Source: Dehalococcoidia bacterium (GTDB lineage: Bacteria; Chloroflexota; Dehalococcoidia; UBA2979). From it: DNA of 64,000 nt. A program made the position numbers and the translations under genes. The notes beneath the pieces were generated by a model, which was given only the letters and a program-made list of their open reading frames with translations, was not told the origin of the DNA and made no database searches. The stretch covers positions 188,816-252,815 of the forward strand of contig JALOAL010000001.1 of the NCBI GenBank assembly GCA_023228825.1. Reading direction: 5' to 3'. Below, in pieces: positions 9,807 through 64,000 of this stretch (position 1 is its first letter; the number at the start of each line of letters is the position of its first letter).

Positions 9807-10124
9807 GTGGTCGCCCGCCAGGTCCCCGAGCGGACAGACGACGTCGCCGCTACCGCCACCCCCGCCACGACTGCCACCCCCGCCATGACTGCGACGACGG
9901 GCAGCGCCGGACGTCCCGGCACGCCGCGCAACGTCGAGGCGTACACGCCGCACCGCCTGCCGGCCACCAGCGCCGCTGACCTCCACGACCCACGCGCCGA
10001 GGGCTTCGCGCTGCTGGACCGCATCCAGGCGCTCCGCCACGAGCAGCCCGCCGAGTGGTCCGGTGACCTGGACGCGATCGAATCCCTCGTCTGGCGCCTG
10101 CTCTTCCTGGACCACCAGGACTAG
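9807..10124 (+). CDS. Hypothetical small protein
   Basis: This is the ORF 9705..10124 in the track. I propose a GTG start after the GAGAGAG Shine-Dalgarno-like run. The C-terminal half looks protein-like. It is followed by two hairpins. Confidence 0.3.
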   Translation: MVARQVPERTDDVAATATPATTATPAMTATTGSAGRPGTPRNVEAYTPHRLPATSAADLHDPRAEGFALLDRIQALRHEQPAEWSGDLDAIESLVWRLLFLDHQD

Positions 10125-11073: not shown

Positions 11074-12318
11074 GTGCTCGTGAATCAGACGCAAATGACG
11101 TTGGACGAGTACGACCGCAGAAGGCGTCTCTTGGAGGATGCCTTTAGTCCGTTCGCTCCGGTAAGTGAAGCCGAGGTGTTTCACGGTCGTTCTGAGCAAC
11201 GGCGGCTGGTAGTAGAAGCGATCCGGACGGTCGGTCGGCATGTCGTCATCTACGGCGAGCGAGGGGTTGGTAAAACCTCACTGGCCAACGTTCTGCGCCC
11301 GTGGCTGGGCCAAGCGATAGCCGTTGCCCACGTTAGCGCAACAGCTGGCGACACCTTCGAGACCCTGATTCGACGGGCGTTCGCCTCCTACCAGCTGACA
11401 TTGCCGCTGCCCGCTGTGGGCTTCGTGCGTCAGCAGACTGAAGTTCAGTACGCCTTGGCGGCTGCTCTACCGGGCGAGAGCCCGCTGCTCCCCGATCAGG
11501 TCGCTCGGACGCTTGCGAACTTCAACTATGACCTGGTCGTCGTGGTTGACGAGTTCGACCGCCTCCCCACAGAGCAAGTACCGGCCTTCGCAGACTTTAT
11601 TAAGTCTCTTTCTGACGACCGGTCTGGATCGACTGTCGTGATTGTCGGTGTTGCAGAATCGGTCAATCAATTGGTAGGCGAACATGGATCGATTGTCCGC
11701 AACCTCATGCAAATTCATATGCCGCGGATGTCGGAGGACGAACTCACCGAGATCGTCGATACCGGGTTTACAGCAGCTGACTGCACCAGCACAAGTCGAG
11801 TGATGAGCAGAATCGTGCGGTCGTGTCACGGCTTCCCGCATTACGCTCATCTGATCGCACAGTACACGGGCTTAGCGGCGTTAAACGAGGCGAAGCAAAA
11901 GGGACAAGCAATCGACGGGACGCTCGAGATCACCGAGCAGCACGTCGTTGGAGGAATGGATCGGGCCGTCCAGACCGCCGATCAGACGCACCGCGAGGCG
12001 TACCATCGGGCGGTCCAAGGTGGGGATGCTTCTCTGTGGGTACCGGTAGTGGTCGCATGTGCCTTGGCGTCGGCGGATGACCGTGGCTTCTTTAATTCCC
12101 GGGCAGTTCTACAGGCGTTGCAGCAGATACGCGGCCAAGAGGTCGTCCAACAGACTTTTGCCTACCATCTGGGCGAGCTGATCGCGGAAAAGCGGGGGCC
12201 ACTCCTCGAACGCACTGGTCCTGAGAAGCGCTACCTCTACCGCTTTGTTGATCCCTTCATGCGGCCCTATATCATCATGCGGGCACAGGCCGAGCGGGTG
12301 GCTGACGGTCTCGCCTAA
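11074..12318 (+). CDS. AAA+ P-loop NTPase (Arch_ATPase/AAA_16/AAA_22-like, Cdc6/ORC-like N-terminal domain with an uncharacterised C-terminal domain) on a low-GC islet
   Basis: Walker A is GERGVGKTSL and Walker B is VVVDEFDRL. The protein is 414 aa. Local GC is about 48-57% against about 70% in the flanks. Confidence 0.6.
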   Translation: MLVNQTQMTLDEYDRRRRLLEDAFSPFAPVSEAEVFHGRSEQRRLVVEAIRTVGRHVVIYGERGVGKTSLANVLRPWLGQAIAVAHVSATAGDTFETLIRRAFASYQLTLPLPAVGFVRQQTEVQYALAAALPGESPLLPDQVARTLANFNYDLVVVVDEFDRLPTEQVPAFADFIKSLSDDRSGSTVVIVGVAESVNQLVGEHGSIVRNLMQIHMPRMSEDELTEIVDTGFTAADCTSTSRVMSRIVRSCHGFPHYAHLIAQYTGLAALNEAKQKGQAIDGTLEITEQHVVGGMDRAVQTADQTHREAYHRAVQGGDASLWVPVVVACALASADDRGFFNSRAVLQALQQIRGQEVVQQTFAYHLGELIAEKRGPLLERTGPEKRYLYRFVDPFMRPYIIMRAQAERVADGLA

Positions 12319-12344: not shown

Positions 12345-13394
12345 ATGACCTCCACCACTGACCGCATCGCCGAGATTGAGCGCGACGCCCTGGCGGCGCT
12401 CGCCAGTGCCGAGGATGACGCCAGCATCGAGGCGTGGCGGACGCGGGTGCTGGGGCGGTCGGGGGAGTTGACGGGCGTGCTGCGCGGCATCGGCGGGCTG
12501 GAGGCCGAGGAGCGCAAGGCCGTGGGCGCCGAGGCGAACCGCGCCAAGCAGGTGCTGGAGGCAGCCCTCGAAGCGCGGCGCGAGGCGGTCCGGCGCGCGG
12601 CGCTGGCCTCGGCGGAGGCGGACGCCCTCGACGTGACGCTGCCGGGCCGGCCAGTGGGCATCGGCCGGCTGCACCCGGTCACGCAGGTGCGCCGCAAGAT
12701 CCTGGACGTCTTCGAGCGCCTGGGCTTCCAGGTCATCGAGGGCCCCGAGGTGGAACTGGACGAGTACAACTTCGGCGCGCTGCGCATCCCGGAACACCAC
12801 CCCGCGCGCGACATGTGGGACACGTTCTGGTTCGACGAGGAGGTGGACGGCAAGACGCCGCTCCTCCTGCGTACGCACACCAGCCCCATGCAGATCCGCC
12901 ACATGCAGTCCCACGAGCCGCCCATCCGCGTGGCCGTCCCCGGCAAGTGCTACCGCTACGAGGCCACGGACGCCACGCACGAGTGGATGCTGGAGCAGGT
13001 GGAACTGCTCGCCATTGACGAGGGCATCTCCATGGCGAACCTGAAGGGGACCCTGGAGGAGTGGGCGCGCCAGATGTTCGGCCCCGGCCGCAAGGTGATG
13101 CTACGCAACTCCTACTTCCCGTTCGTGGAGCCGGGCGTGGAGGTGGCGGTCGACTGCTTCGCCTGCCCGGGCGACGACCCGGCGTGCTCGGTATGTCGAG
13201 GCTCAGGCTGGCTGGAGATGATGGGCGCGGGCATGGTGCACCCGGAGATCATCGAGGCTGCGGGCTACGACCCGGAGCGGTACACGGGCTTCGCCGCCGG
13301 CATGGGCGTGGAGCGCGTGGCCATGGTGATGCTGGGCGTCTCCGACATCCGCGACTTCCACGCGAACGACCCTCGCTTCCTCGCCCAGTTCTGA
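12345..13394 (+). CDS. pheS: Phenylalanine--tRNA ligase alpha subunit
   Basis: Class II aaRS motifs are present (...FDEEVDGKTPLLLRTHTSPMQIRHM...). The protein is 349 aa. Confidence 0.9.
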   Translation: MTSTTDRIAEIERDALAALASAEDDASIEAWRTRVLGRSGELTGVLRGIGGLEAEERKAVGAEANRAKQVLEAALEARREAVRRAALASAEADALDVTLPGRPVGIGRLHPVTQVRRKILDVFERLGFQVIEGPEVELDEYNFGALRIPEHHPARDMWDTFWFDEEVDGKTPLLLRTHTSPMQIRHMQSHEPPIRVAVPGKCYRYEATDATHEWMLEQVELLAIDEGISMANLKGTLEEWARQMFGPGRKVMLRNSYFPFVEPGVEVAVDCFACPGDDPACSVCRGSGWLEMMGAGMVHPEIIEAAGYDPERYTGFAAGMGVERVAMVMLGVSDIRDFHANDPRFLAQF

Positions 13395-13453
13395 TCTGAC
13401 CCCTTCGCCCTGCACAGGGTGTCCCCGTGTGTCCGACTCCGGTCGAACGGAGG

Positions 13454-13501
13454 GGGCTCTGCCTCTGCGAAACCCGGGCCTCTGCGAAACCCGGGCCTCT
13501 G
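13454..13501. repeat. 17-bp direct repeat cctctgcgaaacccggg, 2 copies plus 1 partial, upstream of the thiolase gene
   Basis: The repeat is read directly in the pheS–thiolase intergenic region. Confidence 0.7.
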
Positions 13502-13613
13502 CGAGACCCTGAAATTACGTGCGAATACTGGCGTATCGGTGTCCTGCGTTAGGATGCCGGAGGAGCCTCGAGACCCCTCGATGTGTGGGGGTGGGGGCCG
13601 GGGCTGGAGGAGG

Positions 13614-14834
13614 ATGAGGATGCGCGAGGTCGCGATTGTGTCGCCGCTGCGGACAGCGGTGGGGCGCTTTGGTGGATCACTGAAGGACATTCCGGCCGCG
13701 GACCTGGGCGCCACGGTGGCGAAGGCGATCCTCGAACGGACGGGGCTGGACCCGGCCCGGGTGGACGACGTGGTGCTGGGCCACGGCTACCCCGGCGGCG
13801 AGGAGCCGGCCATCGGACGCATCGTGGGGCTGAAGGCCGGACTACCGGTGGAGACCCCGGGATACCAGTTGGACCGGCGGTGCGCCTCCGGGCTGCAGGC
13901 CATCCTGAACGCGGCCATGCTCGTGCAGACGGACAACGCGGACGTGGTGCTGGCCGGCGGCGTGGAGTCCATGAGCCGCGTGGAGTTCTACACCTCCCCG
14001 GACATCCGCTGGGGCGTGCGTCAGGGCGGCATCGAACTGAAGGACCGCCTCGACCGCTCGCGCACCTGCGCCGCGCCCGAGGAGATCGTGGGCTACATCT
14101 CCGGCATGATCGAGACGGCCGAGAACGTGGCGAAGAAGTACGACATCAGCCGCGAGGCGCAGGACGAGTACGCGGTGCGCAGCCACCAGCGCGCCGTGGC
14201 CGCGCAGCAGGAGGGCCGCTTCGCCGGCGAGATCGTCCCGGTCACCATCCCCCAGCGTCGAGGCGACCCGATCGTGTTCGCGGAGGACGAGGGGCCGCGC
14301 GCTGACACGACGCCTGAGGCGCTCGCGCGCCTGCGCCCAATGATGGGCCCGGATGGCTCCGTGACGGCGGGCAACGCCAGTTCCCAGAACGACGCCGCTT
14401 CGCTCTGCCTCGTGGTGGCGGCGGACAAACTGGACGAGTTGGGCCTCGAACCGTCGCTCTACCTGCGAGGCTGGGCGTCCGCCGGGGTGCACCCGGCGTA
14501 CATGGGCATCGGCCCGGTGCCGGCGTTCGAGAAATTGTCGGCGAAGACGGGCGTGGGCCTGGCGGACATCGACGTGGTCGAACTGAACGAGGCGTTCGCC
14601 AGCCAGGTGTTGGGCGTGCTGCAGGGCTGGGGCGTGGCGGACGACCGCGACTTCCTGGAGAAGTTGAACCCGAACGGGTCCGGCATCTCGCTGGGCCACC
14701 CCATCGCGGCCACGGGCGCGCGCATCCTGGCCACCATGAGCCCCGAGTTGCAGCGTCGAAGTGCGCGTTACGGCCTGGAGACGATGTGCGTGGGCGGCGG
14801 CCAGGGCCTGGCGGCGCTCTTCGAGCGGCCGTAG
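13614..14834 (+). CDS. Acetyl-CoA C-acetyltransferase (thiolase)
   Basis: The Shine-Dalgarno GGAGGAGG precedes ATG 13614 (or 13620). The thiolase N-terminus VAIVSPLRTAVGRFGGSL, the active-site region and a C-terminal GGGQG are present. The tracked 13419 start is an upstream overextension. Confidence 0.85.
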   Translation: MRMREVAIVSPLRTAVGRFGGSLKDIPAADLGATVAKAILERTGLDPARVDDVVLGHGYPGGEEPAIGRIVGLKAGLPVETPGYQLDRRCASGLQAILNAAMLVQTDNADVVLAGGVESMSRVEFYTSPDIRWGVRQGGIELKDRLDRSRTCAAPEEIVGYISGMIETAENVAKKYDISREAQDEYAVRSHQRAVAAQQEGRFAGEIVPVTIPQRRGDPIVFAEDEGPRADTTPEALARLRPMMGPDGSVTAGNASSQNDAASLCLVVAADKLDELGLEPSLYLRGWASAGVHPAYMGIGPVPAFEKLSAKTGVGLADIDVVELNEAFASQVLGVLQGWGVADDRDFLEKLNPNGSGISLGHPIAATGARILATMSPELQRRSARYGLETMCVGGGQGLAALFERP

Positions 14835-14903
14835 GCCCCCTTCACCGCGCACCAGCCTCACGACGTGCCTCTGACGTGTTTCTGACGTGGGCGCCAGGCG
14901 CGG

Positions 14904-15251
14904 TCAGACGACCAGCCCGGCGGCCACGTAGCCGGCCATGCCGGCGATGAGCGCCCCCAGGAGCCCCCAGCGCAGCCCTGCGCCGAGCGCCAGCGCCGTT
15001 CCGACGAGGAGCGGCGCCCACACCCGCAGGGCCGCCTCGAACGTGGCCGTCGCCTCGGCCTCTGCGGTGCCCGCGAGCACGCTGGCCACGAGGGCGGCGA
15101 GGATCGCCGGGCGGGCGTGCACGAGCCAGCGGTCGAGCGACGCCGCCACGCCTCGCGCTGCCGGGATCACGATGAACACGGCGCGCATCGCGTAGGTACC
15201 CAGGGCGATCACGGCGATGGCCGCGAACTGCTGCCACACGGGCATGTCCAT
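14904..15251 (-). CDS. azlD: Branched-chain amino acid transport protein AzlD
   Basis: It is a small (115 aa), very hydrophobic protein downstream of azlC. Confidence 0.6.
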   Translation of the reverse strand: MDMPVWQQFAAIAVIALGTYAMRAVFIVIPAARGVAASLDRWLVHARPAILAALVASVLAGTAEAEATATFEAALRVWAPLLVGTALALGAGLRWGLLGALIAGMAGYVAAGLVV

Positions 15252-15253
15252 GC

Positions 15254-16036
15254 TCAGCCCTCGCTCTCGCTGCTCGCGCCGGTGGCGTCAGTGGGGGGCG
15301 AGAAGCGCGCCGCCACGATGCCCGCGAGCATGCCGAAGCCGGCCCCGGCGATGATCGAGCCCGTGTCCATGAGCGGCCGCAGCGCGACCGCCGCCGCCGC
15401 CCCCACGATCGCCGCCGCCACGGCCGGGCGGCCACGGAGCGCGGGGGCGAGCAGGCCGGTGAGGGCGGCGGGGGCCGCGAACTCCACGGGCCAGGACTCC
15501 GGGATCACGTGGCCGGCCAGCACGCCCGCGGTCACGGCCACGAGCCACACGACGCCGAGGAACCCTCCGGAGGCGACCAGGTAGCGCCGGAACCAGCGCC
15601 GGTCCCCGCGCTCCTCGGGGCGGCGGGCGAAGACCAGGGCGAAGGTCTCGTCCAGGATCAGGTGCGGCGCGGCCCAGCGGAACCAGCGCGGTTGGCCTCG
15701 GAAGAGCGGGCTGAGGGCGGCGCTGTAGATGAGCATGCGCGCGTTCACGACCAGCGTGGCCACGACCACCGCGATCCAGGCGGCGCCCTCGCCCAGCAGG
15801 GTGACCGCGGCCAGGTGCGCGGACCCGGCGAACACCAGCGGCGTAGCCACCCACCCCACGAGGTTCGACATCGCCGTCTCGGAGATGGCCGCGCCCACGG
15901 CGATGCCGAACGGCAGCACGGAGATCGCCACCGGTACGGCGTCGCGCAGGGCCGCGCCGGCAGCCCCCACTATCGAGGAAGCGCGCGCGGTTGACTCGGC
16001 GCTGGCGGAGGACTCTGGCCTGCCCAACGACGCCAC
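15254..16036 (-). CDS. azlC: AzlC-family branched-chain amino acid permease
   Basis: It is a polytopic membrane protein with AzlC-like motifs (VLPFGIAVGA..., NARMLIYSAALSP). Confidence 0.65.
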   Translation of the reverse strand: MASLGRPESSASAESTARASSIVGAAGAALRDAVPVAISVLPFGIAVGAAISETAMSNLVGWVATPLVFAGSAHLAAVTLLGEGAAWIAVVVATLVVNARMLIYSAALSPLFRGQPRWFRWAAPHLILDETFALVFARRPEERGDRRWFRRYLVASGGFLGVVWLVAVTAGVLAGHVIPESWPVEFAAPAALTGLLAPALRGRPAVAAAIVGAAAAVALRPLMDTGSIIAGAGFGMLAGIVAARFSPPTDATGASSESEG

Positions 16037-16312
16037 CTGCTCTCACGTCCTCCGGGACGCTCGTCATCGTCCCCCAGCACGGCCTCGGTAGCCACTGAAG
16101 GACACGAAGGGAACGACGCGACACCCCGGCAGCGGGTGCAACGCGGGCGACCCCAGGCGGCGGGAGATCATCAAGGTCAACGACCACCTGATGACCGCGC
16201 TCGAATACCTCATGGAGATGGTGGACGGCCCCCGCTCGACAGGCGGCGCGGGCGACGACTACGCCGACGTGCCCGTCCTCCACTGACCACCCCCCGACTG
16301 CATCGGCCACCT

Positions 16313-16405
16313 ACCTACGCAATTTGCGTAGGTATAACCGTCAAGTAGTGGCGCCCGCAGGTCTGGAAGCACGTTACTTGACCGTTATACTTACGCAAAT
16401 TACGT
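16313..16405. promoter_or_regulatory. AT-rich composite palindrome/operator. It contains a perfect 23-bp palindrome TACCTACGCAA-T-TTGCGTAGGTA (16313-16335) inside an approximately 93-bp imperfect inverted repeat, with a third TACTTACGCAAA half-site.
   Basis: The inverted repeats are read directly. Local GC is about 40-45% in a 70% GC genome. It sits between divergent azlC (minus) and a small operon (plus). Candidate -35 TTGAC(C/G) boxes overlap it on both strands. Confidence 0.6.
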
Positions 16406-16455
16406 GAATGGGGGGTGCTTTGCCACGTCCGTGATGAAGCACTAGGCTTGCACAC

Positions 16456-16770
16456 ATGAGCGAAGACACCACCCCCCACAACGTGAACCGCGAGCCTGCG
16501 AACCGTAACCATTCCCCGATCCCCCTGGAGGATCTGCAGGTCATCGCGCATTACCCGGCCGACTACATCTCCCGCGGCGGGCTCATCGGGGGGATCGGCA
16601 CCGCCGTACTGACTCTGCTCGGCTCTGGCCCGGATCTCGAGGCTCAGGTGTGGGGACTACTCGCAGGCGGCTTCCTCGGCGGGCTGGTCGGCTTCATCGC
16701 GATGATCTTCGTGGGCGAGTTCCGCTACGTGGAGTGGCGCAACAAGCAGCGCGACCGCAACGAAGCGTGA
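16456..16770 (+). CDS. Small membrane protein (two predicted TM helices), unknown function
   Basis: It is a 104-aa ORF immediately downstream of the palindromic region with a hydrophobic C-terminal half. Confidence 0.45.
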   Translation: MSEDTTPHNVNREPANRNHSPIPLEDLQVIAHYPADYISRGGLIGGIGTAVLTLLGSGPDLEAQVWGLLAGGFLGGLVGFIAMIFVGEFRYVEWRNKQRDRNEA

Positions 16771-17087
16771 ACCGCTGGGCCCTCGCTCTCGTGGTCGTCG
16801 GCGTGTTCGCGCTCGGCGCTGCCGTCAACGCGCTCGGCCAGGACGATCCGCCAGCCGATCAGCCGGTCGTGGTGTGGAAGGGGCGGACGGGCTCCAACCA
16901 GGTCTGGACCGTTCGCTACCAGATCGCCGATGACCACTGGGCGTTGTTCACGGCGGGGCACGCTGGTTGCTACGCCGCAGCCCGGATCGGCGAACCGCTG
17001 CCGGATGAGTGCAGGGGTGGGGTCGCGGAGTTGACGCCCCGAGAGCGGGTGATCGAGCGGCTCCGGGAACGCCAGAACAACCGCTAG
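16767..17087 (+). CDS. Small secreted protein (signal peptide ...AAVNA-LGQ), translationally coupled to the upstream gene
   Basis: The GTG start overlaps the upstream stop (GTGA) and is followed by a typical signal peptide. The tracked ORF 16650..17087 is the same frame extended from an upstream ATG. Confidence 0.4.
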   Translation: MNRWALALVVVGVFALGAAVNALGQDDPPADQPVVVWKGRTGSNQVWTVRYQIADDHWALFTAGHAGCYAAARIGEPLPDECRGGVAELTPRERVIERLRERQNNR

Positions 17088-17239
17088 ACCGCGACCGCCG
17101 CCTTCCGCCGCCAGTAGGTCGTCCGCCGGCACTTCCCGTACCACGCATCCACGCCTTCGGCCTTCACGTCCACCTGCGCCACGATGAACGGCTTGCCGTA
17201 CTTGTCTCGGCACCCGTTCGCGCACCTGATGCCGGCCAT
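17084..17239 (-). CDS. Possible 51-aa Cys-containing (zinc-ribbon-like) protein
   Basis: The protein reads MAGIRCANGCRDKYGKPFIVAQVDVKAEGVDAWYGKCRRTTYWRRKAAVAV. It is the C-terminal part of tracked ORF 17084..17533. The RBS is weak. Confidence 0.25.
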   Translation of the reverse strand: MAGIRCANGCRDKYGKPFIVAQVDVKAEGVDAWYGKCRRTTYWRRKAAVAV

Positions 17240-17486
17240 CACCAGGTCGCTCACTGCGCCGCCTGCCTCGCCCGCAGCCGTTCGAGCACCCGCTGCCGTG
17301 CGCCGCTGGACGCAGGAGCCTCGGTGATGGCGGGGATAGTGACCTCGCGCACGCCCGGCCGAATCCCGCCAGCGGTGCAACGCGGGCGGGGGGTCGGCGG
17401 GATGTATCATCCGTGCGTGCAGGCCGCACTCGGGGGGCGGGCTCGACGTGTTCGAGGCCGACGGGTGCACGGGAGGACAGAGCAGG

Positions 17487-19814
17487 ATGACGACAGTCGA
17501 GCAGGACGCGCAGCAGTACCGGATCATTGGCACGAGCCCACGGAGGCCGGACGGCGTCGAGAAGGTGACCGGGCGCGCCGTGTACGGTGCGGACGTGCGC
17601 CTCTCCGGCCTGCTGCACGGTCGCGTGAAGCGCAGCCCCCACGCTCACGCAATCATCAAGCGCATCGACGTGTCGAAGGCCCTCGCACTGCCGGGCGTGC
17701 TCGCGGTGGTACTGCACTCGGACTTCCCGGCGCCGTCCGAGCCGATCATGCAGACGATCCGCGGCCCCCAGCCGTCTGACTGGGACACCGAGCGCATCAT
17801 TGCCCGCCGCAAGGTGCTCTTCCGTGGCCACCCCGTGGCAGCCGTCGCCGCTACCGACCACCACATTGCCGAGGATGCCCTCGAACTGATCGAGGTCGAG
17901 TACGAAGTGCTGCCGGCGGTGGTCACCATGGACGACGCCATTGCCGCCGGTGCGCCCATCCTGCACGACGACGGCAAGGCGGACATGGTGGAGGGCCTCT
18001 TCACCCCCGTGGACGGCCGTCCCACGAACATCGCGCGCACGCTGGAACTCGGCCTGGGCGACGTGGAGGCGGGCTTCGCGGAGTCCGAGGTGGTGCTGGA
18101 GCGCGTCTACGAGACGGCGATGGCGCATCAGGGCTACATCGAGCCGCACAACGCCACCGCCATGTGGAACAGCGACGGCAAGGTCACCATCTGGACCAGC
18201 ACGCAGGGCGCCTTCGGCATCCGCGGCAACGTCTCGCGCATCCTCAACCTGCCGCTGGGCGACCTGAAGGTCGTCCCGGCCGAGATCGGCGGCGGCTTCG
18301 GCGCGAAGAACGTGGTCTACCTGGAGCCGCTGGCCGCGCTCCTTTCGAAGAAGACCGGACGTCCGGTGCAGATCACGATGAACCGCACGGAGGTGCTGGA
18401 GGCCACCGGGCCCACGTCCGGCACCCGCTCCTGGGTGCGCATCGGCGCGAAGCGTGACGGTACGCTGGTGGCCGCCGACATCCGCCTGGAGTACGAGGCG
18501 GGCGCCTACCCCGGCTCGCCCATGCCGGGCGGCGCGCGTTGCGCCCTGGGCCCATACTTCGTGCCGAACCAGCGCATCGTGGGCTACGACATCGTCCTGA
18601 ACCGGCCGAAGGTGGCGGCGTACCGCGCACCGGGCGCGCCCGCCTCCGAGTTCGCGGTGGAGTCGCTTCTGGACGAACTGTCGGAGCGGCTACAGATGGA
18701 CCCCACGGAGTTGCGCCTGAAGAACGCCGCCGTCCCCGGCACGCCTCGCAGCGACGGCGCTACGCACGGCAGCATCGGCGCGCGCGAGACCATGGAGGCG
18801 CTCGTCAACCACCCGCACTACCGCTCGGAGATCACCGGCCAGGACATCGGCCGAGGGGTGGCGGTGGGCTTCTGGCAGAACGGCGGCGGCGAGTCCTCCG
18901 CGTACGCGAATGTGCACTCGGACGGGCGGGTGACGCTCATCACCGGCTCCGTGGACATCGGCGGGCAGCGTGCGGCGTTGGCGATGCAGTTCGCGGAGGC
19001 CATGGGCATCGCGTACGAGGACATCACCTCGCTCGTGGGGGACACGGACAGCATCGGCTTCACCGGCAACACCGGGGGCAGCCGCACCACCTTCGCCACC
19101 GGCTGGGCCGTGTACCAGGCCGCCATGGACGTCCGCAAGCAACTCGAAGAGCGCATGGCCCGCATCTGGGAGTGCGATCCGTCCGAGGTGGCCTATGACC
19201 CCGAGGACGCCACCCTGAAGGGCCCCGAGGGGAAGTCGATGACCTTCCAGGAGGCGGCACGCCGCCTCCCCGGCAGCGGCGGCAACATCCAGGGCCAGGC
19301 GAACGTGGTCTCCACCAACGTGGGCAAGGTGGGCGCCTGCTACGGCGCGCACATCGCAGATGTGCATGTGGACCGGGAGACCGGCAAGGTCACCGTGCTC
19401 CGCTACACCGCCATCCAGGACGTGGGCAAGGCGATCCACCGCGACTACGTGGAAGGCCAGATCCAGGGCGGCGCCGTGCAGGGCATCGGCATGGCGCTGC
19501 ACGAGGAGTACGTCTACGACGAGGACGGGCGCATGGTGAACGCCTCGTTCCTGGACTACCGCATGCCGGTGGCCAACGACCTGCCGATGATCGAGACCGT
19601 GCTCGTGGAGGTGCCGAACCCCGGCCACCCCTACGGCGTGCGCGGCGTGGGCGAGGTGCCCATCGTCCCGCCGCTGGGGGCGATCGCGAACGCCATCTAT
19701 GACGCCGTGGGCGTCCGCGTCACGCGCCTGCCGGCCTCGCCCCGCGTGATCCTCGAGGGCCTCGACGCGCTCGAGGGCAGCGCGGGCACGACGACGACGG
19801 AGGCCGCGGGGTAG
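17487..19814 (+). CDS. Xanthine dehydrogenase/aldehyde oxidase-type molybdopterin-binding large subunit (CoxL/XdhA/YagR-like)
   Basis: The N-terminus (IGTSPRRPDGVEKVTGRAVYGADV) is typical. The protein is about 775 aa. The start is at MTTVEQ with a GGGAGGACAG Shine-Dalgarno. No small (2Fe-2S) or medium (FAD) subunit gene is adjacent. Confidence 0.8.
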   Translation: MTTVEQDAQQYRIIGTSPRRPDGVEKVTGRAVYGADVRLSGLLHGRVKRSPHAHAIIKRIDVSKALALPGVLAVVLHSDFPAPSEPIMQTIRGPQPSDWDTERIIARRKVLFRGHPVAAVAATDHHIAEDALELIEVEYEVLPAVVTMDDAIAAGAPILHDDGKADMVEGLFTPVDGRPTNIARTLELGLGDVEAGFAESEVVLERVYETAMAHQGYIEPHNATAMWNSDGKVTIWTSTQGAFGIRGNVSRILNLPLGDLKVVPAEIGGGFGAKNVVYLEPLAALLSKKTGRPVQITMNRTEVLEATGPTSGTRSWVRIGAKRDGTLVAADIRLEYEAGAYPGSPMPGGARCALGPYFVPNQRIVGYDIVLNRPKVAAYRAPGAPASEFAVESLLDELSERLQMDPTELRLKNAAVPGTPRSDGATHGSIGARETMEALVNHPHYRSEITGQDIGRGVAVGFWQNGGGESSAYANVHSDGRVTLITGSVDIGGQRAALAMQFAEAMGIAYEDITSLVGDTDSIGFTGNTGGSRTTFATGWAVYQAAMDVRKQLEERMARIWECDPSEVAYDPEDATLKGPEGKSMTFQEAARRLPGSGGNIQGQANVVSTNVGKVGACYGAHIADVHVDRETGKVTVLRYTAIQDVGKAIHRDYVEGQIQGGAVQGIGMALHEEYVYDEDGRMVNASFLDYRMPVANDLPMIETVLVEVPNPGHPYGVRGVGEVPIVPPLGAIANAIYDAVGVRVTRLPASPRVILEGLDALEGSAGTTTTEAAG

Positions 19815-19840
19815 GGGGCCACCCCCACCCCGCCTGGCGT

Positions 19841-20110
19841 ATGGCCATCCTGCACGTCCCCGCCTCGCTGCGGGCGCTGACAGATGGTCGTGAGCGCTTC
19901 GAGGTCCCCGGTGCGGCAACCCTCCGGCAGGTCGTGGAGGCGGTGGGCCGCGAGTGCCCGGAACTGGCGGCGCGCATCGCCACGGACGGCGAACTGCGGC
20001 CAGACATGGCGGTCGCCATCGACGGCTCGATCATCGAGGAAGGCGGACTGCTGACGCCCGTGGAGGCGGACGCGGAGATCTACCTCGTCCCGCCGATCGG
20101 CGGAGGATGA
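19841..20110 (+). CDS. MoaD/ThiS-family sulfur-carrier protein (C-terminal GG)
   Basis: It is 89 aa, ends ...PPIGGG* and has a beta-grasp-like sequence. Confidence 0.6.
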   Translation: MAILHVPASLRALTDGRERFEVPGAATLRQVVEAVGRECPELAARIATDGELRPDMAVAIDGSIIEEGGLLTPVEADAEIYLVPPIGGG

Positions 20111-20242
20111 CCGTACCAGACGCTGGCGGAACGCCTCCCGCAGGGGCGTTTCGTGGTGCTGCCGGGCGTCGCCCACATCCCGCAGATCGAGCAGCCGGAG
20201 GCCATCGCCGCCCTCGTACGCGAGGTGGCGAGCCAGTCCTGA
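20111..20242 (+). pseudogene. Remnant encoding the C-terminal about 43 aa of an alpha/beta-hydrolase-fold protein (…LPQGRFVVLPGVAHIPQIEQPEAIAALVREVASQS*)
   Basis: It continues in the same frame immediately after the MoaD TGA stop. There is no start codon or N-terminal domain. The sequence matches the conserved C-terminal His region of alpha/beta hydrolases. Confidence 0.5.
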
Positions 20243-20349
20243 GCGCGCCGGTCCAGCGTTCCTGGCGGGGGGAGGGTGGCAGGCAAGCGCCGGGTGTTCG
20301 AGACTTCGTGTGAGCCCCTTTGCTCGCCTCATCCTGCTGGGAGCCGTAC

Positions 20350-22797
20350 ATGCTGGTGTCGTTGAAGTGGTTGCGTGAGTACGTCGACATCCCGAACGAC
20401 GTGGACGTGGACGACCTGGCGCACCGCCTGACCATGGCCAGCGCGGAGGTAGAGGGCATCCAGCGCCTGGGCGCCCAGTGGGACCGCGACCTGATCCGCG
20501 TGGGACACGTGCTGCAGGTGGACCCGCACCCCAACGCAGACCGCCTGCGCCTGGCCACGGTGGACTTCGGCGGCGGTGAGCCCCAGACCGTCGTCTGCGG
20601 CGCGCCGAACCTCCAGGCCGGGCAGCGCATCGCGTTCGCGCGCGAGGGGGCGCGGGTGCGGGACGGGCACTCTGGCAAGGAGATGACGCTGAAGCGCACG
20701 AAGATCCGCGACGTGGAGTCTGCGGGCATGGTGCTCTCCGAGCGCGAACTCGGCCTGTCCGAGGAACACGAGGGCATTGTCGTCCTGCCGGAGGATGCGC
20801 CCGTGGGCACGCCGCTGGCCGAGTACCTGGGCGACACGATCCTGGACGTCCACATCTGGCCGAACCGCGCGGACATGATGAGCATCACCGGCATCGCCCG
20901 CGAGGTGGCCGCCGTCCTCGGCGCCACCGTGCGCCCGCCGTCCGCCGACTACCCCACCAGCGACGTGCCGGCGTCCGAGGCCGTCTCGGTCGCCATCGAG
21001 GACCCCGCGCTGTGCGCGCGCTACGTGGCGACGGTGATCGAGGGCGTGCAGGTGGGGCCGTCGCCGGAGTGGCTCCAGCAGCGGCTGCGCTCTGCCGGGC
21101 AGCGGCCGATCTCCAACGTGGTGGACATCACGAACTACGTCATGCTCGAACTGGGGCAGCCGCTGCACGCGTTCGATCTGGACACCGTGCGTGGCGAGGT
21201 GGGCGTGCGCCTGGCGCGCGACGGCGAGACGCTGCGGACCCTCGACGGCGTCGACCGCTCGCTGGCGCCGGACACGCTGGTGATCACGGACGAGGCCGGC
21301 CCCATCGCGCTGGCCGGCGTCATGGGCGGCCAGCACACCGAGGTCACCCCGGGCACCACGCGCATACTGCTGGAGGCGGCCCGCTTCGACCCGGTCAGTA
21401 TCCGCCGCACCTCCACCCGGCTTGCCCTCCGCTCCGAGGCCTCCTCGCGCTTCGAGCGCGGCCTCTCGCCGGACCTGGCGATGGAGGCCTCGCGGCGCGC
21501 GACGCAGTTGTTCGTGGAGGTGGCGGGCGGCACGGCGCTGGCGGGCGCGGTGGACGTCTACCCCGCCCCCGCCGAACGCACCGAGGTGACCGTGCCGCGC
21601 CGTCGCCTGGACACTGTGATCGGCGTCCACGTGCCCACCGCGGAGGTGGTGAGCATCCTGGAGACGCTGGGCTTCGAGGTGCTGGAGACGGACCGAGAGC
21701 AGGCGGACGGCGCGTTCCGCATCCGCGCCCCCTGGTGGCGCACCGACATCGGCATTCCGGACGACATCGCGGAGGAGGTGGTGCGCCTGGCCGGGTACGA
21801 CCGCCTGCCGGCGGCGGCCATCCGCGCCGCGATCCCGGCGTGGGAGCCCTCGCCGATGCCCGACCTGCGCGACCGGGTGGTGGACGCGCTGGTGGGTGCG
21901 GGCATGCAGGAGACCATCACCTACTCGCTCACGACGGACGAGGTGCTCCTGCGCGTGATGCCGCGCGAGGACCTGGAGGTGATCCGCCCGCTCCGCCTCA
22001 AGAACACGCTCTCCTCCGACCGCGAGGTCATGCGTCCCACCCTGCGCCACGCGGTGCTGGAGACGGTCGAGCGCAGCATCCGCGCGGGTGCGGAGCGCAT
22101 TGCCGTCTTCGAGTCCGGGCGGACCTACCTCCCGCGCCGGGGCGGCGACACCGAAGGCGATGGCGTGCTTCCCGAGGAGCGCGAGGTGGTGATCGGCGCG
22201 GTCTCCGGGCACGACCTCGACCGCTGGGGGCGCCCCACGGACCGCGCGCTCGACTTCTACGACGCGAAGGGGGTGGTGGAGGCGTTGTTCGACGTCCTTC
22301 AGACGCCCGTGACGTTCCAGGCCGCCGAGGCGTTCGGCATGATGCGCGGCCGCACGGCGCACCTGCTGGTGGGCGAAGCGCCCGTGGGCGTGCTGGCCGA
22401 GGTGCACCCGGACGTACTGGACGCCTTCGAGATCGGGCAGCCGGTGCTCCTCTTCGAGGTTGACCTGCCCTCGCTGCTGCCGCACGTGGGCGGGCGTCGG
22501 GCTGCGCAGTCGGTGCCGCGCTACCCGGCCGTGGAGCAGGACCTGGCGGTGGTGGTGGACGCGGAGGTGCCGGCGGCCCGTATCCAGGCCGTGCTGGAGG
22601 GCTCACCGCTGGTCACGAGCGCCCGCGTGTTCGACGTCTTCCACGACGAGCGCCTGGGCGAGGGCAAGAAGAGCATCGCCTTCGCGATCCGATACCAGGC
22701 GCCCAACCGCACGCTGACCTCGGAAGACGCGAACCGGGAGCAGGCCAAACTCCTGAAGCGCCTGGAACGCGAGTTCGGCGCCACCCTGCGCGGGTAG
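20350..22797 (+). CDS. pheT: Phenylalanine--tRNA ligase beta subunit
   Basis: The N-terminus MLVSLKWLREYVDIP is canonical. The protein is about 815 aa and includes B3/4, B5 and FDX-ACB regions. Confidence 0.9.
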   Translation: MLVSLKWLREYVDIPNDVDVDDLAHRLTMASAEVEGIQRLGAQWDRDLIRVGHVLQVDPHPNADRLRLATVDFGGGEPQTVVCGAPNLQAGQRIAFAREGARVRDGHSGKEMTLKRTKIRDVESAGMVLSERELGLSEEHEGIVVLPEDAPVGTPLAEYLGDTILDVHIWPNRADMMSITGIAREVAAVLGATVRPPSADYPTSDVPASEAVSVAIEDPALCARYVATVIEGVQVGPSPEWLQQRLRSAGQRPISNVVDITNYVMLELGQPLHAFDLDTVRGEVGVRLARDGETLRTLDGVDRSLAPDTLVITDEAGPIALAGVMGGQHTEVTPGTTRILLEAARFDPVSIRRTSTRLALRSEASSRFERGLSPDLAMEASRRATQLFVEVAGGTALAGAVDVYPAPAERTEVTVPRRRLDTVIGVHVPTAEVVSILETLGFEVLETDREQADGAFRIRAPWWRTDIGIPDDIAEEVVRLAGYDRLPAAAIRAAIPAWEPSPMPDLRDRVVDALVGAGMQETITYSLTTDEVLLRVMPREDLEVIRPLRLKNTLSSDREVMRPTLRHAVLETVERSIRAGAERIAVFESGRTYLPRRGGDTEGDGVLPEEREVVIGAVSGHDLDRWGRPTDRALDFYDAKGVVEALFDVLQTPVTFQAAEAFGMMRGRTAHLLVGEAPVGVLAEVHPDVLDAFEIGQPVLLFEVDLPSLLPHVGGRRAAQSVPRYPAVEQDLAVVVDAEVPAARIQAVLEGSPLVTSARVFDVFHDERLGEGKKSIAFAIRYQAPNRTLTSEDANREQAKLLKRLEREFGATLRG

Positions 22798-28151: not shown

Positions 28152-28178
28152 GGCGACGAGGGGCTCCGGGAGCCCCTC
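28152..28178 (-). terminator. Perfect 12-bp stem hairpin (GACGAGGGGCTCC gg GAGCCCCTCGTC) downstream of the lipoprotein gene
   Basis: The hairpin is seen directly. Confidence 0.5.
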
Positions 28179-28277
28179 GTCAGCATCGCAGTCAATACAC
28201 CAGCCGGGACGGTGGGGTTCCGCCACCACCGGGAGCCGGCGGCGCCGGGACGCCGCAGGACCGGTGGTGGGCTGCGC

Positions 28278-31689: not shown

Positions 31690-31766
31690 GTGAGGGAATG
31701 GTGGGCGGTACTGGATTCGAACCAGTGACCTCAGCGATGTCAACGCTGCGCTCTAACCAACTGAGC
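31690..31766 (-). tRNA. tRNA-Val (anticodon GAC)
   Basis: I folded a cloverleaf by eye: acceptor GGGTGGT/ACCGCCC, D-arm GCTC…GAGC, anticodon stem CAGCG with loop TTGACAT, T-arm ACTGG TTCGAAT CCAGT, and an encoded CCA. Confidence 0.8.
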
Positions 31767-31822
31767 TAACCACCCACGCTGAAACTCGGTCCCGGCCGGC
31801 GGCGCCGGCAGCGAAGAAGGGA

Positions 31823-31851
31823 CGGAGGCTGACGCTATGGTACCCTGTGGT
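31823..31851 (-). promoter_or_regulatory. Sigma-70-like promoter for tRNA-Val (-35 TTGACG, 17-nt spacer, -10 TAGCGT)
   Basis: The elements are read on the minus strand about 55 nt upstream of the tRNA. Confidence 0.45.
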
Positions 31852-31968
31852 GACCGTCAACGGCAGGCCTTGCAGCCACCCTTCGATGCGAGATTCAGGC
31901 CTGCCGTGCGGTGCACGGGCACTGTCCGCCAGCAGCCGGTGAGACGGGTTGACGGTCGGTCAGATTCG

Positions 31969-31997
31969 TTGACACGCCAAAACCTCACTGCTACGTT
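31969..31997 (+). promoter_or_regulatory. Sigma-70-like promoter for tRNA-Lys/tRNA-Leu (-35 TTGACA, 17-nt spacer, -10 TACGTT)
   Basis: The elements lie 12 nt upstream of tRNA-Lys. A second TTGAC sits 18 nt further upstream. Confidence 0.55.
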
Positions 31998-32009
31998 CCT
32001 GCCGAGTTC

Positions 32010-32084
32010 GGGCCTCTAGCTCAATGGTAGAGCAGCTGACTCTTAATCAGCCGGTTCAGGGTTCGAATCCCTGGGGGCTCACCA
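32010..32084 (+). tRNA. tRNA-Lys (anticodon CTT)
   Basis: The cloverleaf has acceptor GGGCCTC, D-arm GCTC AATGGTA GAGC, anticodon stem GCTGA with loop CTCTTAA, T-arm CAGGG TTCGAAT CCCTG, and a CCA end. Confidence 0.8.
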
Positions 32085-32132
32085 CTCGACTCATCCGCGG
32101 CGGGGAAATCGCGGGTAGGGGCCGTTCCGCGC

Positions 32133-32217
32133 GGGGAAGTGTCGGAACTGGCAGACGAGCGTGACTTAGGATCACGTGCCGCAAGGCGTAGGAGTTCGAG
32201 TCTCCTCTTCCCCACCA
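32133..32217 (+). tRNA. tRNA-Leu (anticodon TAG), class II with a long variable arm
   Basis: The acceptor is GGGGAAG/CTTCCCC, the anticodon stem CGTGA with loop CTTAGGA, the variable arm is long, the T-arm is GGAGT TCGAGTC TCCTC, and CCA is encoded. Confidence 0.75.
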
Positions 32218-34375: not shown

Positions 34376-34412
34376 TCGAGAGGCCCCGCGCGAGCGGGGC
34401 CTCTCTGTTTCC
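34376..34412 (+). terminator. Rho-independent terminator after oppF
   Basis: The hairpin GAGAGGCCCCGC gcga GCGGGGCCTCTC is followed by TGTTTCC. Confidence 0.7.
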
Positions 34413-39698: not shown

Positions 39699-39963
39699 GG
39701 TCGTGCTAGGCGGGGCCTTAGCGGCGCCCTGTACCCGCAATCCGCTACAGCGGGGCTGAATGCCCGTCCGAGAACGATCCTGAAGGGACTGCGAACGCCA
39801 GGCGGCGTTGAGAGCCTGGTCCCGTGCGGCGACGTCCAGTGAACCCCGCCAGGGCCGGAAGGCAGCAACGGTAAGCCGGTAGCGTCGGGCGCCACGGGGT
39901 CGCCGGGCTTGAGCCGGCCAGCGAGAGCAAGCCTGAAGGGCCGTCCGACGGCGGGGCACGACC
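39699..39963 (+). ncRNA. ffs: Signal recognition particle RNA, long (Bacillus/Alu-domain) type
   Basis: The domain IV motif CCAGGGCCGGAAGGCAGCAACGGUAAGCC is present. The Alu-domain-like 5' region GUGCUAGGCGGGG…GCGGCGCCCUGUACCCGCAAUCCGCUACAGCGGGGCUGAAUGCCC closely resembles B. subtilis scRNA. The terminal helix is GGUCGUGC/GCACGACC. Confidence 0.75.
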
Positions 39964-62559: not shown

Positions 62560-62641
62560 ATCCCTGCGCGGTGGCCCGATCTACTCAACCTCCTCCTGTT
62601 GCATCCTTGCGGGCCATTAGCGCGTGCTGGGCTCAAAATCA

Positions 62642-62675
62642 TCATCGAAACGATGAGATGACCCATCGTTTCGAT
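62642..62675. promoter_or_regulatory. 14/15-bp inverted repeat TCATCGAAACGATGA…(C)CATCGTTTCGATGA at the entry to a low-GC islet
   Basis: The hairpin-forming repeat is read directly. Its function (operator, terminator or insertion scar) is unknown. Confidence 0.5.
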
Positions 62676-62738
62676 GACGACAAGTCTGGTGGCGGTGACG
62701 AAAATGTCACCGTGCATCGCGACATCGAGGAGGATCGC

Positions 62739-63350
62739 ATGAGACTGAAGGTTGAGCGGCGCTCTGTCGCTGCACTCGTTGGTGCAGCAATGTCCATCGT
62801 GATTGTACAGGGATTGATGTCCTCGTCTGTCTTCGGAAGTGGGCAATCCCCCTTCGCTGCGTACCTCGGAGTCCCCGACCACGAGTCCTACCGGGTGGTG
62901 CAATCCCACTACAAGAATTACGGAGGCGGCCCGACCGAGATACTCAAGGTTATCGATTATTACCGTGTGTCTGACGGTACGCCAGAGCGGACGGAGAGCA
63001 TCTTCTACGAGAACGGAACCGCGATAGTCTCTAGCGCCACCGACTTCGCCTCTGGCTCCCCGGTCGCAACCACACACGACCTCCGTTCGGGGCGAACCCA
63101 CACTACGACCGTGCTGCTACCAGCCGCGGGAATCACCGAGATAACACCGCTCGATGTGCTGGCAGCACGTGGTTTCTCAGAGATCGGCGAGTCCTCGTGG
63201 GCTGGCGAGACCACCCGGATCTTCGCCCTTGAGCAGGAATTGCCCGAGGGAAGCGGGCTCGATGCGGACGCAGAACGCGTCGAGGTGCACGTCCATGCCA
63301 AAAGCGAAGTGTTGTCCTGCCAAACTAGACAGTGCTTTCAATCAAGATAG
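62739..63350 (+). CDS. Secreted protein of unknown function (signal peptide) on a low-GC islet
   Basis: The strong Shine-Dalgarno GAGGAGG lies 5 nt before the ATG. The N-terminus is MRLKVERRSVAALVGAAMSIVIVQG. The tracked ORF 62082..63350 overextends upstream. Confidence 0.5.
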   Translation: MRLKVERRSVAALVGAAMSIVIVQGLMSSSVFGSGQSPFAAYLGVPDHESYRVVQSHYKNYGGGPTEILKVIDYYRVSDGTPERTESIFYENGTAIVSSATDFASGSPVATTHDLRSGRTHTTTVLLPAAGITEITPLDVLAARGFSEIGESSWAGETTRIFALEQELPEGSGLDADAERVEVHVHAKSEVLSCQTRQCFQSR

Positions 63351-63898: not shown

Positions 63899-64000
63899 TC
63901 GTGCCGGGAGGGATGTCCGTCCTCACCTTTCCCCGAGCCGCCGCCGCTGGTAGATTGCAGGGGCGCGTGAAATCGTGCACGAGCAGCGCCACCGGGTATG

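Follow-up and report, generated by a model that had tools for sequence, protein, structure and literature searches.

An islet of small genes between azlC and an XDH-family gene

Within the 64,000-nucleotide stretch of Dehalococcoidia DNA analysed here (the window), azlC is separated from the gene for an XDH-family molybdoenzyme by a spacer of 1450 bp, which carries ORFs of 31, 104, 106, 51 and 33 codons only, together with an array of palindromic sequences and a bounding direct repeat (Table 1). The only syntenic relative that we found, another Dehalococcoidia MAG (L010), shares the gene order pheS, thiolase, azlDC, XDH, ThiS and pheT, with amino acid identities of 94% for pheS, 86% for thiolase, 54% for azlD, 56% for azlC, 88% for XDH, 78% for ThiS and 87% for pheT. 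In L010, however, the azlC-XDH spacer is only 268 bp, and a tblastn search revealed no trace of ORF104, ORF106 or ORF51. Comparison with this one relative, in which the conserved flanking genes enclose an empty site, therefore indicates that the whole module is an islet of about 1.19 kb (16173-17359) lying between azlC and the XDH-family gene. As judged from this one relative, the event may have been either an insertion here or a deletion in L010. Six other assemblies with the locus are 100% identical to it, and thus provide no signal of covariation or conservation.

The islet is bounded by an imperfect direct repeat of 54 nt with a 15-nt identical core. The two copies agree in 43 of 56 aligned columns, a score reached by none of 500 dinucleotide shuffles, and the sequence that ends the right copy (TGTATCATC) also occurs upstream of XDH in L010. 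A dif/Xer site was considered by eye and set aside, as the flanking repeat is without inverted arms. Family searches of the islet ORFs found no integrase, recombinase or transposase.

Table 1. Features of the azlC-XDH spacer (positions in the window)
Feature	Position	Strand	Properties
Left copy of direct repeat	16119-16172	+	core GGTGCAACGCGGGCG at 16135-16149; ends ATCATC
Coding-like stump	16173-16286	+	GC1/2/3 0.71/0.37/0.92; no family matches
Complete palindrome array	16312-16410		99 bp
P1, perfect 23-bp palindrome (11+1+11)	16312-16334	none	TACCTACGCAA-T-TTGCGTAGGTA; 43% GC
Large inverted repeat, 31-nt arms	16317-16347 / 16375-16405		
Inner arm b'	16333-16347	-	TACTTGACGGTTATA; contains -35-like TTGACG (16344-16339)
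Inner arm b	16375-16389	+	TACTTGACCGTTATA; contains TTGACC (16378-16383); overlaps -10-like TATACT (16386-16391)
P2, degenerate second palindrome copy	16388-16410	none	TACTTACGCAA-A-TTACGTGAATG
Third half-site unit	16388-16398		TACTTACGCAA
ORF104	16456-16770	+	GC3 0.85; orphan small membrane protein (hydropathy prediction)
ORF106	16767-17087	+	GC3 0.86; predicted N-terminal hydrophobic signal or anchor
ORF51	17084-17239	-	GC3 0.94; orphan, very basic, net charge +7
ORF33, doubtful 33-aa ORF	17251-17352	-	GC1/2/3 0.76/0.62/0.82; not clearly coding
Right copy of direct repeat	17360-17411	+	core at 17374-17388; ends in TGTATCATC

The GC3 values of ORF104, ORF106 and ORF51 are coding-like, on a scale on which the neighbouring real genes lie at 0.92-0.95 and shadow frames at 0.47-0.61. 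ORF104 has a hydrophilic N-terminus, a weaker Gly-rich segment (residues 41-58), a strong transmembrane segment (63-89) and a charged C-terminal tail. A sequence-only reading of this DNA had assigned two transmembrane helices to the protein; in the hydropathy profile, one segment is strong and one weaker. The signal peptide that had been attributed to ORF106 agrees with an N-terminal hydrophobic, signal-like segment in the hydropathy profile, and the rest of the protein includes two Cys residues (68 and 82) and a charged helical tail. The GTG start of ORF106 overlaps the stop codon of ORF104 (GTGA), as stated when translational coupling of the pair was proposed.

ORF51, also noted in the sequence-only reading as a convergent, Cys-containing ORF and coding-like by its GC3, faces ORF106, and the stop codons of the two share CTAG at 17084-17087. 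An alternative GTG start at 17254 would give a 56-aa form, and this GTG overlaps the stop codon of ORF33 (GTGA). The zinc ribbon suggested for ORF51 did not hold up: the protein has Cys residues at positions 6, 10 and 37 only (a CxxxC pattern), no His, no CxxC pair and no match to a Pfam zinc ribbon, and with only three such Cys to offer it does not qualify as a canonical zinc ribbon. The tail of ORF33, RVLERLR, mirrors the RVIERLR tail of ORF106 through an inverted repeat (17044-17067 / 17271-17294) that is of borderline significance against the window (E = 0.07). At the other edge of the islet, the frame of the stump is open from 16092, with no start codon before the ATG at 16191; the 31-aa ORF that begins at this ATG is called as a gene in five of six assemblies. 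The stump is probably the 3' end of a truncated gene.

We found no relatives of the islet proteins. A word-index search of 5.8 billion proteins with ORF104, ORF106 and ORF51 returned self matches only, and Pfam, PHROGs, PADLOC and NCBIfam gave nothing significant for the islet proteins, including no DNA-binding family in any islet ORF (Pfam, PHROGs and NCBIfam). For the small conflict or stress module that the sequence-only reading had raised as a possibility, these four collections likewise gave no significant match. An exhaustive phmmer search of 1.84 billion representatives with ORF106 gave only weak, repeat-summed matches of residues 41-87 to the He_PIG/Ig-like repeats of giant proteins, which we took as a motif-level resemblance and not as homology. 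Against PDB sequences, ORF106 had no significant match (best E = 1.1) and ORF51 had none. AF2 single-sequence models of ORF106 (pLDDT 51.7) and ORF51 (pLDDT 47.5) were too poor for a fold search. Scans of viral-contig proteins detected no relatives of the islet proteins, and blastn of the islet DNA against phage and plasmid records gave no match. A holin-spanin remnant was considered by eye and rejected, there being no endolysin. Thus, conservation of the small proteins finds no support: all three are orphans, and the closest relative lacks the entire module.

A palindrome array 5' of the coupled gene pair

The array occupies the spacer immediately 5' of the coupled, coding-like small gene pair, with P1 and P2 extending from 144 to 46 nt 5' of the ATG of ORF104. 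P1, which starts 25 nt past the stop codon of the stump, is the perfect 23-bp palindrome described in the sequence-only reading, and it is nested, as also described there, in a larger imperfect inverted repeat. The arms of this repeat are complementary at 28 of 31 positions, with 27 nt between them, and their mismatches are C/C, G/T and C/A; the symmetry of P1 runs 5 nt past the large repeat. The third half-site that had been reported next to the palindrome is likewise present, and we find it to be the left half of P2, a degenerate copy of P1 that keeps 10 of the 11 positions of P1 in its left half and 7 of the 11 positions of the ideal in its right half. The centres of P1 and P2 are 76 bp apart. 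Both repeated units are in excess, with three matches to the 15-nt inner arm as against 0.11 expected, and 12 matches to the half-site as against 4.9 expected, a number reached by none of 100 shuffles. The flanks of the array (...GGCCACC on the left, GGGGGGT... on the right) are without a clear target-site duplication.

The array is poorer in G+C than the window (70.4% GC), at 35% for P2, 47.5% for the array as a whole and 55% for the 169-bp spacer. The patch of lower GC that had been noticed here is therefore real, but its figure of 40-45% was somewhat overstated. The lowest GC content over 100 nt at the locus is 48%, the third-lowest patch of the window. The window contains three perfect palindromes with arms of at least 11 nt, of which P1 alone is AT-rich, the other two having 78-82% GC.

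The -35-like hexamers proposed to face both divergent genes, TTGACC and TTGACG, are both present; neither, however, has a -10 partner that passes our scan. A scan of 15900-17600 for sigma-70-type -35/-10 pairs with a spacing of 16-18 nt gave no site, and the best -35 partner of the TATACT hexamer matches at three of six positions, a pairing below the scan threshold. Divergent control of azlC, which the same hexamers had suggested, is not borne out: TTGACG lies about 300 bp from the azlC start, with the coding stump of the + strand in between, and lacks a -10 passing the scan. By eye, the spacing of none of the CtsR, HAIR, ECF-sigma and sigma-54 promoter patterns fits.

We searched for further copies of the motif. 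At up to three mismatches, P1 has no second site in 81.8 kb of the source contig, and the motif is absent from the 20.7-kb locus of L010. The arm pattern had no match in IMG/VR and three unrelated ones in JGI metagenomes, in genomes of 37-43% GC, which we judged to be due to chance; as the source organism was not among these matches, the JGI scan is silent on copies within its own genome. The P1 core (16 specified bases) occurs at 18 sites in IMG/VR, which is about the number expected by chance. One of these sites, with 21 nt in common with P1, belongs to an unrelated phage of 60% GC, where it is flanked by the portal and scaffold genes. A literature search on the motif yielded nothing informative. 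The comparison covered six assemblies, which are identical, and one syntenic relative, and the motif scan covered 81.8 kb of the source contig.

Possible roles of the array

Our best explanation, which we put forward tentatively, is that the array is the control region of a small strain-specific orphan islet, with the palindromes as a putative local promoter-operator. The islet may have entered by recombination at a site in the upstream region of XDH, and may be what remains of a larger foreign element, as a fragment or deletion derivative. The palindromes would act at the level of DNA, as operators for a dimeric repressor. P1 would be the strong, high-affinity site for a dimeric DNA-binding protein, and P2 a weaker site that overlaps the most plausible -10-like hexamer, TATACT. 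With both sites occupied, at their distance of 76 bp, ORF104-106 would be switched off. The repressor might be the basic ORF51 on the islet itself, a factor that disappeared along with the truncated part of the element, or a protein that the host encodes at another locus. Since they are located on a strain-specific insert of orphan genes, the palindromes are probably the insert's own on/off switch and not the site of a genome-wide regulator.

Several features are consistent with operators. The extension of the P1 symmetry by 5 nt beyond the large repeat fits selection on its own dyad, as for a protein dimer, and this extra symmetry is not needed by a long hairpin. The mismatches of the arms favour neither strand as RNA, the spacer is of lower GC, the array ends 45 nt before the start codon of the coupled pair, and ORF51 carries its net charge of +7 in only 51 residues. 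Moreover, a strong site accompanied by a weaker one is a common operator layout in phage and plasmid repressors. Against the operator reading, no sigma-70 pair passes the scan and the islet ORFs have no DNA-binding domain; the low confidence of both AF2 models and the absence of an integrase or transposase are on the same side.

A role of the array at the RNA level is also possible, but unlikely. Transcription from upstream would allow 16316-16409 to fold as a long hairpin, which could terminate or stabilise the transcript of the truncated upstream gene or, in a 5'-UTR, mask the weak ribosome-binding region of ORF104. The predicted fold of 16300-16460 (-72.1 kcal/mol, z = -6.1), in which the flanks pair until just before the AUG, would suit such a role, as would the distance of P1 from the end of the stump, which recurs for a GC-rich palindrome at 34378, likewise 25 nt past a gene end (34352). 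However, P1 is followed by TAACCGTC and there is no G+C-rich stem with the U-run of an intrinsic terminator; a terminator scan of 15900-17600 gave no site, and Rfam had no match in the same region (best E-value 3, bit scores far below gathering). The stems are AT-rich, in contrast to the 78-82% GC of the other palindromes in the window. The arm mismatches show no strand-specific G-U signal, and the perfect dyad of P1 would be superfluous to the long hairpin and would compete with it.

A relic without any regulatory role is a comparably minor possibility: the array could have originated as a solo MITE-like (foldback) element or through a recent inverted duplication, and could have been carried in with the islet or have formed on it. 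It is a unit of 99 bp with terminal inverted repeats of 31-35 nt that are 90% alike around a 27-nt core, and the DNA that carries it is itself an indel in comparison with the nearest genome. The high identity of the arms fits a recent origin; as the 31-nt arms differ at only three positions, they may stem from a recent inverted duplication, in which case their similarity is uninformative on function. Conversely, the array is single-copy in the 81.8 kb of source contig and absent from L010 and IMG/VR, with only the three chance matches in JGI metagenomes, and no target-site duplication is obvious around 16312-16410. A perfect palindrome within a terminal repeat, as in P1, is moreover unusual for MITEs.

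It is improbable, in our view, that the array served DNA transactions of the islet's parent mobile element in cis (as a recombinase or resolution site, an origin, or a transfer or partition site), the cognate enzyme having been lost. The direct repeats that bound the islet, together with its start inside a truncated gene, do make it look like a fragment of something larger, and multi-unit inverted-repeat arrays of about 100 bp are typical of res, partition and ori sites. Yet the genes called in the 10 kb on each side include no recombinase, Rep, relaxase or ParA/B gene, and no such family is among the 25 of 66 Pfam families that are listed for the remainder of the window. The islet DNA shows no similarity to that of phages or plasmids, and the array is set apart from the junction, at 140-240 bp from the repeat core. 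Inspection by eye also spoke against an integron attC site (a single site, with R'/R'' cores that do not match) and an IS200/IS605-type hairpin end (no TnpA or TnpB).

A more elaborate proposal seems to us more doubtful still. In it, the islet would be a new kind of self-contained module: the very basic ORF51, possibly with ORF33, would bind the palindromes and gate the membrane and exported pair in exclusion, addiction or stress, and the islet would move without a recombinase through the 15-nt core of the 54-nt flanking repeats.

Very improbable, finally, is that P1 is one operator of a genome-wide regulon under a global host regulator, as had been suggested. High affinity would be expected of a perfect palindrome of this length, and there is no neighbouring regulator gene (for the genes called in the 10 kb on each side no Pfam DNA-binding regulator is recorded, in agreement with the sequence-only reading), but no second site at up to three mismatches was found in the 81.8 kb or the L010 locus, and orphan DNA absent from the nearest relative is an unlikely place for a conserved regulon member. 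A single motif beside unconserved small ORFs, named in advance as the finding that would speak against a regulon, is what the sequence reached (the 81.8 kb and the L010 locus) contains.

The ideas of a zinc ribbon and a global regulator should thus be dropped, and the locus regarded as strain-specific orphan DNA. If the local operator reading is true, the locus is a further case of a small orphan accessory islet that brings its own operator, and it would serve mainly to illustrate how tiny gene sets come and go between conserved housekeeping genes in uncultured Chloroflexota. It would have greater weight if ORF51 were a new miniature DNA-binding protein, or if the membrane and secreted pair had a new function in exclusion or defence; neither is shown by the present findings.

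Comparison with known systems

Type II toxin-antitoxin loci share with the islet two genes of about 100 codons, a 4-nt start/stop overlap, an upstream palindrome and a location on variable DNA. In contrast to such loci, no toxin-antitoxin or defence family was matched in Pfam, NCBIfam or PADLOC, and the products of both ORF104 and ORF106 carry hydrophobic membrane or signal segments, because of which they are predicted not to be cytoplasmic proteins. MITEs and Correia and ERIC-type elements are, like the array, intergenic units that measure about 100 bp, end in long inverted repeats whose arms contain -35/-10-like hexamers, and would form a strong hairpin if transcribed. Unlike them, the array is single-copy in the sequence reached, has no visible target-site duplication and shows no similarity to any described element.

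The operators of phage, plasmid, TetR and Xre-type repressors, such as palindromic pairs of a strong and a weak operator set around a promoter, share with the array an odd-centred long palindrome, a weaker copy tens of bp away, and a lower-GC spacer before a small accessory operon on horizontally variable DNA. The array differs from such modules in that it has no adjacent repressor gene with a recognisable DNA-binding domain and no consensus promoter, in that its 11-bp half-sites are longer than usual, and in that both sites lie inside a larger inverted repeat. Compared with att-bounded genomic islets and prophage remnants ("morons"), the islet is only 1.2 kb long, lacks integrase and excisionase genes, does not sit at a tRNA gene, and has ORFs whose GC content is close to that of the host. 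Like them, however, it is present here and absent in a syntenic relative, is bounded by a direct repeat with an identical core, has a truncated gene at one edge, and carries small orphan proteins, predicted to be membrane-bound and secreted, with a control region of their own.

An islet missing from the nearest relative

Our firmest result, and a new one, is that the module forms a 1.2-kb orphan islet, flanked by repeats, that the nearest relative lacks. Six further assemblies of different sample origin showed 100% identity over 3-20 kb; all stand for a single clone and are uninformative about conservation. An AzlC scan, with one genome per species, returned a single syntenic relative, L010 (a Dehalococcoidia MAG), with the same gene order (pheS, thiolase, azlD, azlC, XDH, ThiS and pheT; amino acid identities of 94, 86, 54, 56, 88, 78 and 87%, respectively). 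The distance between azlC and the XDH-family molybdoenzyme gene was 268 bp in L010 versus 1450 bp in the window, and the L010 locus held no trace of ORF104, ORF106 or ORF51 (the small islet ORFs, numbered by codons) and no site resembling P1, the 23-bp palindrome. Thus, an indel carries every one of the small ORFs as well as the palindromes.

An imperfect direct repeat stands at the two edges of the indel, with 43 of 56 aligned columns identical and an exact 15-nt core, GGTGCAACGCGGGCG; its score was reached by 0 of 500 shuffles. The right copy ends in TGTATCATC, also present upstream of XDH in L010, and either copy showed weak overall similarity to the L010 spacer (p about 0.03-0.06). We infer that about 1.19 kb (16173-17359) either entered at a site upstream of XDH or was lost from L010 via recombination between the repeats. 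TGTATCATC (window 17406-17414; L010 about 9813-9821) is conserved although the spacers have otherwise diverged, and may be the -10 region of the XDH-family gene.

Segment 16173-16286, which lies upstream of the array, is strongly coding-like in composition (GC2 0.37, GC3 0.92), yet the first start codon in its frame is an ATG at 16191, and we therefore read it as the putative 3' stump left by gene truncation. Since this coding frame is interrupted at the left junction, the islet is probably a piece of a larger unit. It carries no integrase, transposase or tRNA gene, and its DNA had no match among phage or plasmid records. As genome variation the islet is of an ordinary kind; its palindrome is unusually tidy.

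Several features of the neighbourhood were also recorded. The usually adjacent pheS and pheT lie about 7 kb apart (window 12345-22797), separated by thiolase, azlD, azlC, the islet, the XDH-family gene and a ThiS-like gene, a split common to L010. AzlC/AzlD (window 14904-16036; L010 10001-11082) show 54-56% identity versus 78-94% for all flanking genes, and this transporter pair is either fast-evolving or was exchanged by recombination immediately beside the islet. The ThiS-pheT interval of L010 (5626-7142) has about 1.5 kb extra, with one alpha/beta-hydrolase-like ORF and one membrane ORF, of which a 112-nt stretch at window 20118-20229 (79% identity) is the sole remnant; this length difference is a second indel of the neighbourhood. 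Just left of the window (L037, 7829-9601), a gene whose 590-aa product carries a phage Baseplate_J domain stands in a housekeeping context, with alaS and ruvX on either side.

Features of the islet
Feature	Position	Strand	Remark
P1, TACCTACGCAA-T-TTGCGTAGGTA	16312-16334		Perfect palindrome
Larger inverted repeat	16317-16347 / 16375-16405		31-nt arms, 28/31 complementary, 27 nt apart
P2, degenerate second copy	16388-16410		Right arm of larger repeat runs into it
ORF104	16456-16770		Overlaps ORF106 by GTGA
ORF106	16767-17087		GTGA overlap with ORF104
ORF51	17084-17239	minus	Convergent to ORF106; CTAG common to both stop codons
ORF33 (33 codons)	17251-17352		GTGA-linked to longer ORF51 form; composition not clearly coding
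Imperfect direct repeat	16119-16172 / 17360-17411		Marks indel edges

The small genes

The arrangement of two coupled small ORFs and a convergent Cys ORF, described in the sequence-only reading, was borne out. ORF104, ORF106 and ORF51 look coding because their GC3 (0.85, 0.86 and 0.94) is near that of neighbouring real genes (0.92-0.95) and above that of shadow frames (0.47-0.61); independent gene callers also called all three. ORF106 has the predicted signal-like segment at its N-terminus, and two Cys. Of the two TM helices proposed for ORF104, the segment at 63-89 is strongly hydrophobic and the Gly-rich one at 41-58 weaker, making the second plausible, not certain. ORF51 (net charge +7) is not the canonical zinc ribbon suggested, since its Cys are only at 6, 10 and 37 and it has no His. 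A borderline 24-nt inverted repeat (17044-17067 / 17271-17294; 21/24, E = 0.07 against the window) flanks ORF51 and encodes near-identical opposite-strand peptide tails, that of ORF106 being RVIERLR and that of ORF33 RVLERLR; two of its three differences are synonymous.

Each of the three proteins matched only itself among 5.8 billion proteins, in a source annotated as a Dehalococcoidia bacterium MAG. Exhaustive phmmer with ORF106 gave only weak, repeat-summed matches of residues 41-87 to Ig-like repeats, and Pfam, PHROGs, PADLOC, NCBIfam and PDB gave nothing significant for islet proteins. Two AlphaFold models were unreliable (pLDDT 52 and 47). The islet proteins lack detectable homology.

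The palindrome array and its possible function

The perfect palindrome, nested in a larger inverted repeat and followed by a third half-site, had been described accurately. P1 overlaps the larger repeat; the left half of P2, TACTTACGCAA, equals the P1 half-site at 10 of 11 positions, and its right half is degenerate. Each arm holds a 15-nt unit, TACTTGACSGTTATA, containing the -35-like hexamers reported earlier. The 40-45% GC assigned to the patch holds for P1 alone and not for the 99-bp array (47.5%, versus 70.4% for the window); the lowest 100-nt GC at the locus, 48%, ranks third-lowest in the 64 kb. The second-lowest patch (46%, 11594-11693) lies within an nSTAND1/AAA_16 ATPase gene (11095-12318).

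The array exceeds chance expectation. Among perfect palindromes in the window with arms of at least 11 nt, P1 alone is AT-rich, and the inner arm and half-site are each over-represented relative to shuffles. Folding exceeds that of shuffles by a wide margin, as RNA (-72.1 kcal/mol, z = -6.1) and also as DNA (z = -4.4). The other two perfect palindromes of this arm length (28155-28181 and 34378-34405; arms 12-13 nt, 78-82% GC) are probably U-tail-less terminator hairpins, the latter starting 25 nt past the stop of a gene ending at 34352.

The suggestion of a global-regulator site was not upheld: neither P1 nor its half-site nor the inner arm recurred beyond the array in 81.8 kb of the source contig (the window plus flanks), and the L010 locus lacks a P1-like site. 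Divergent control of azlC likewise found no support. Nor did a multi-copy MITE, the array units being single-locus in the 81.8 kb and the arm pattern absent from IMG/VR; JGI metagenomes gave three arm matches only, on unrelated low-GC contigs, and the 18 viral sites with the P1 core are about the chance number and all unrelated.

Local control of the tiny operon is plausible and unproven, and we favour a DNA-level operator on several grounds of sequence. The perfect symmetry of P1 passes the large repeat by 5 nt, so that P1 is a unit in itself. Repressors commonly act through a strong site and a weaker one placed ahead of a coupled operon; here P1 would be the strong site and P2 the weaker, upstream of ORF104-ORF106. 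P2 overlaps TATACT (16386-16391), the only good -10-like hexamer, whose final T arises from a C-to-T difference between the arms. Against an operator count the promoter scan, which gave no acceptable -35/-10 pair, and the lack of an identified cognate regulator; the islet itself offers only basic ORF51 as a candidate binder, by pure inference.

The array could instead act as an RNA hairpin, either a terminator or a 5'-UTR structure. Its predicted RNA fold is strong, but a long hairpin would not need the extra symmetry of P1, and the three arm mismatches (C/C 16339/16383, G/T 16331/16391 and C/A 16320/16402) give no strand-specific G-U pattern, both of which argue for the operator. Rfam had no match at the array or islet; elsewhere it identified a large bacterial SRP RNA and three tRNA genes (39701-39961; 31702-32214), unrelated to the array. 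The similarity of the two arms is high enough for a recent duplication, which also counts against an operator, and the array might be a solo foldback relic. Finally, it might be a cis-acting site that belonged to a mobile element since lost.

A second low-GC patch (62560-63900; minimum 39% at 63300-63399) has a perfect 14-nt inverted repeat (62642-62655 / 62664-62677) upstream of a 203-aa ORF (62739-63350) with a hydrophobic N-terminal region and no Pfam match, followed by a lipoprotein-like ORF (63332-63898). It shares the layout of the islet array, a palindrome plus a small exported orphan, but differs in sequence.
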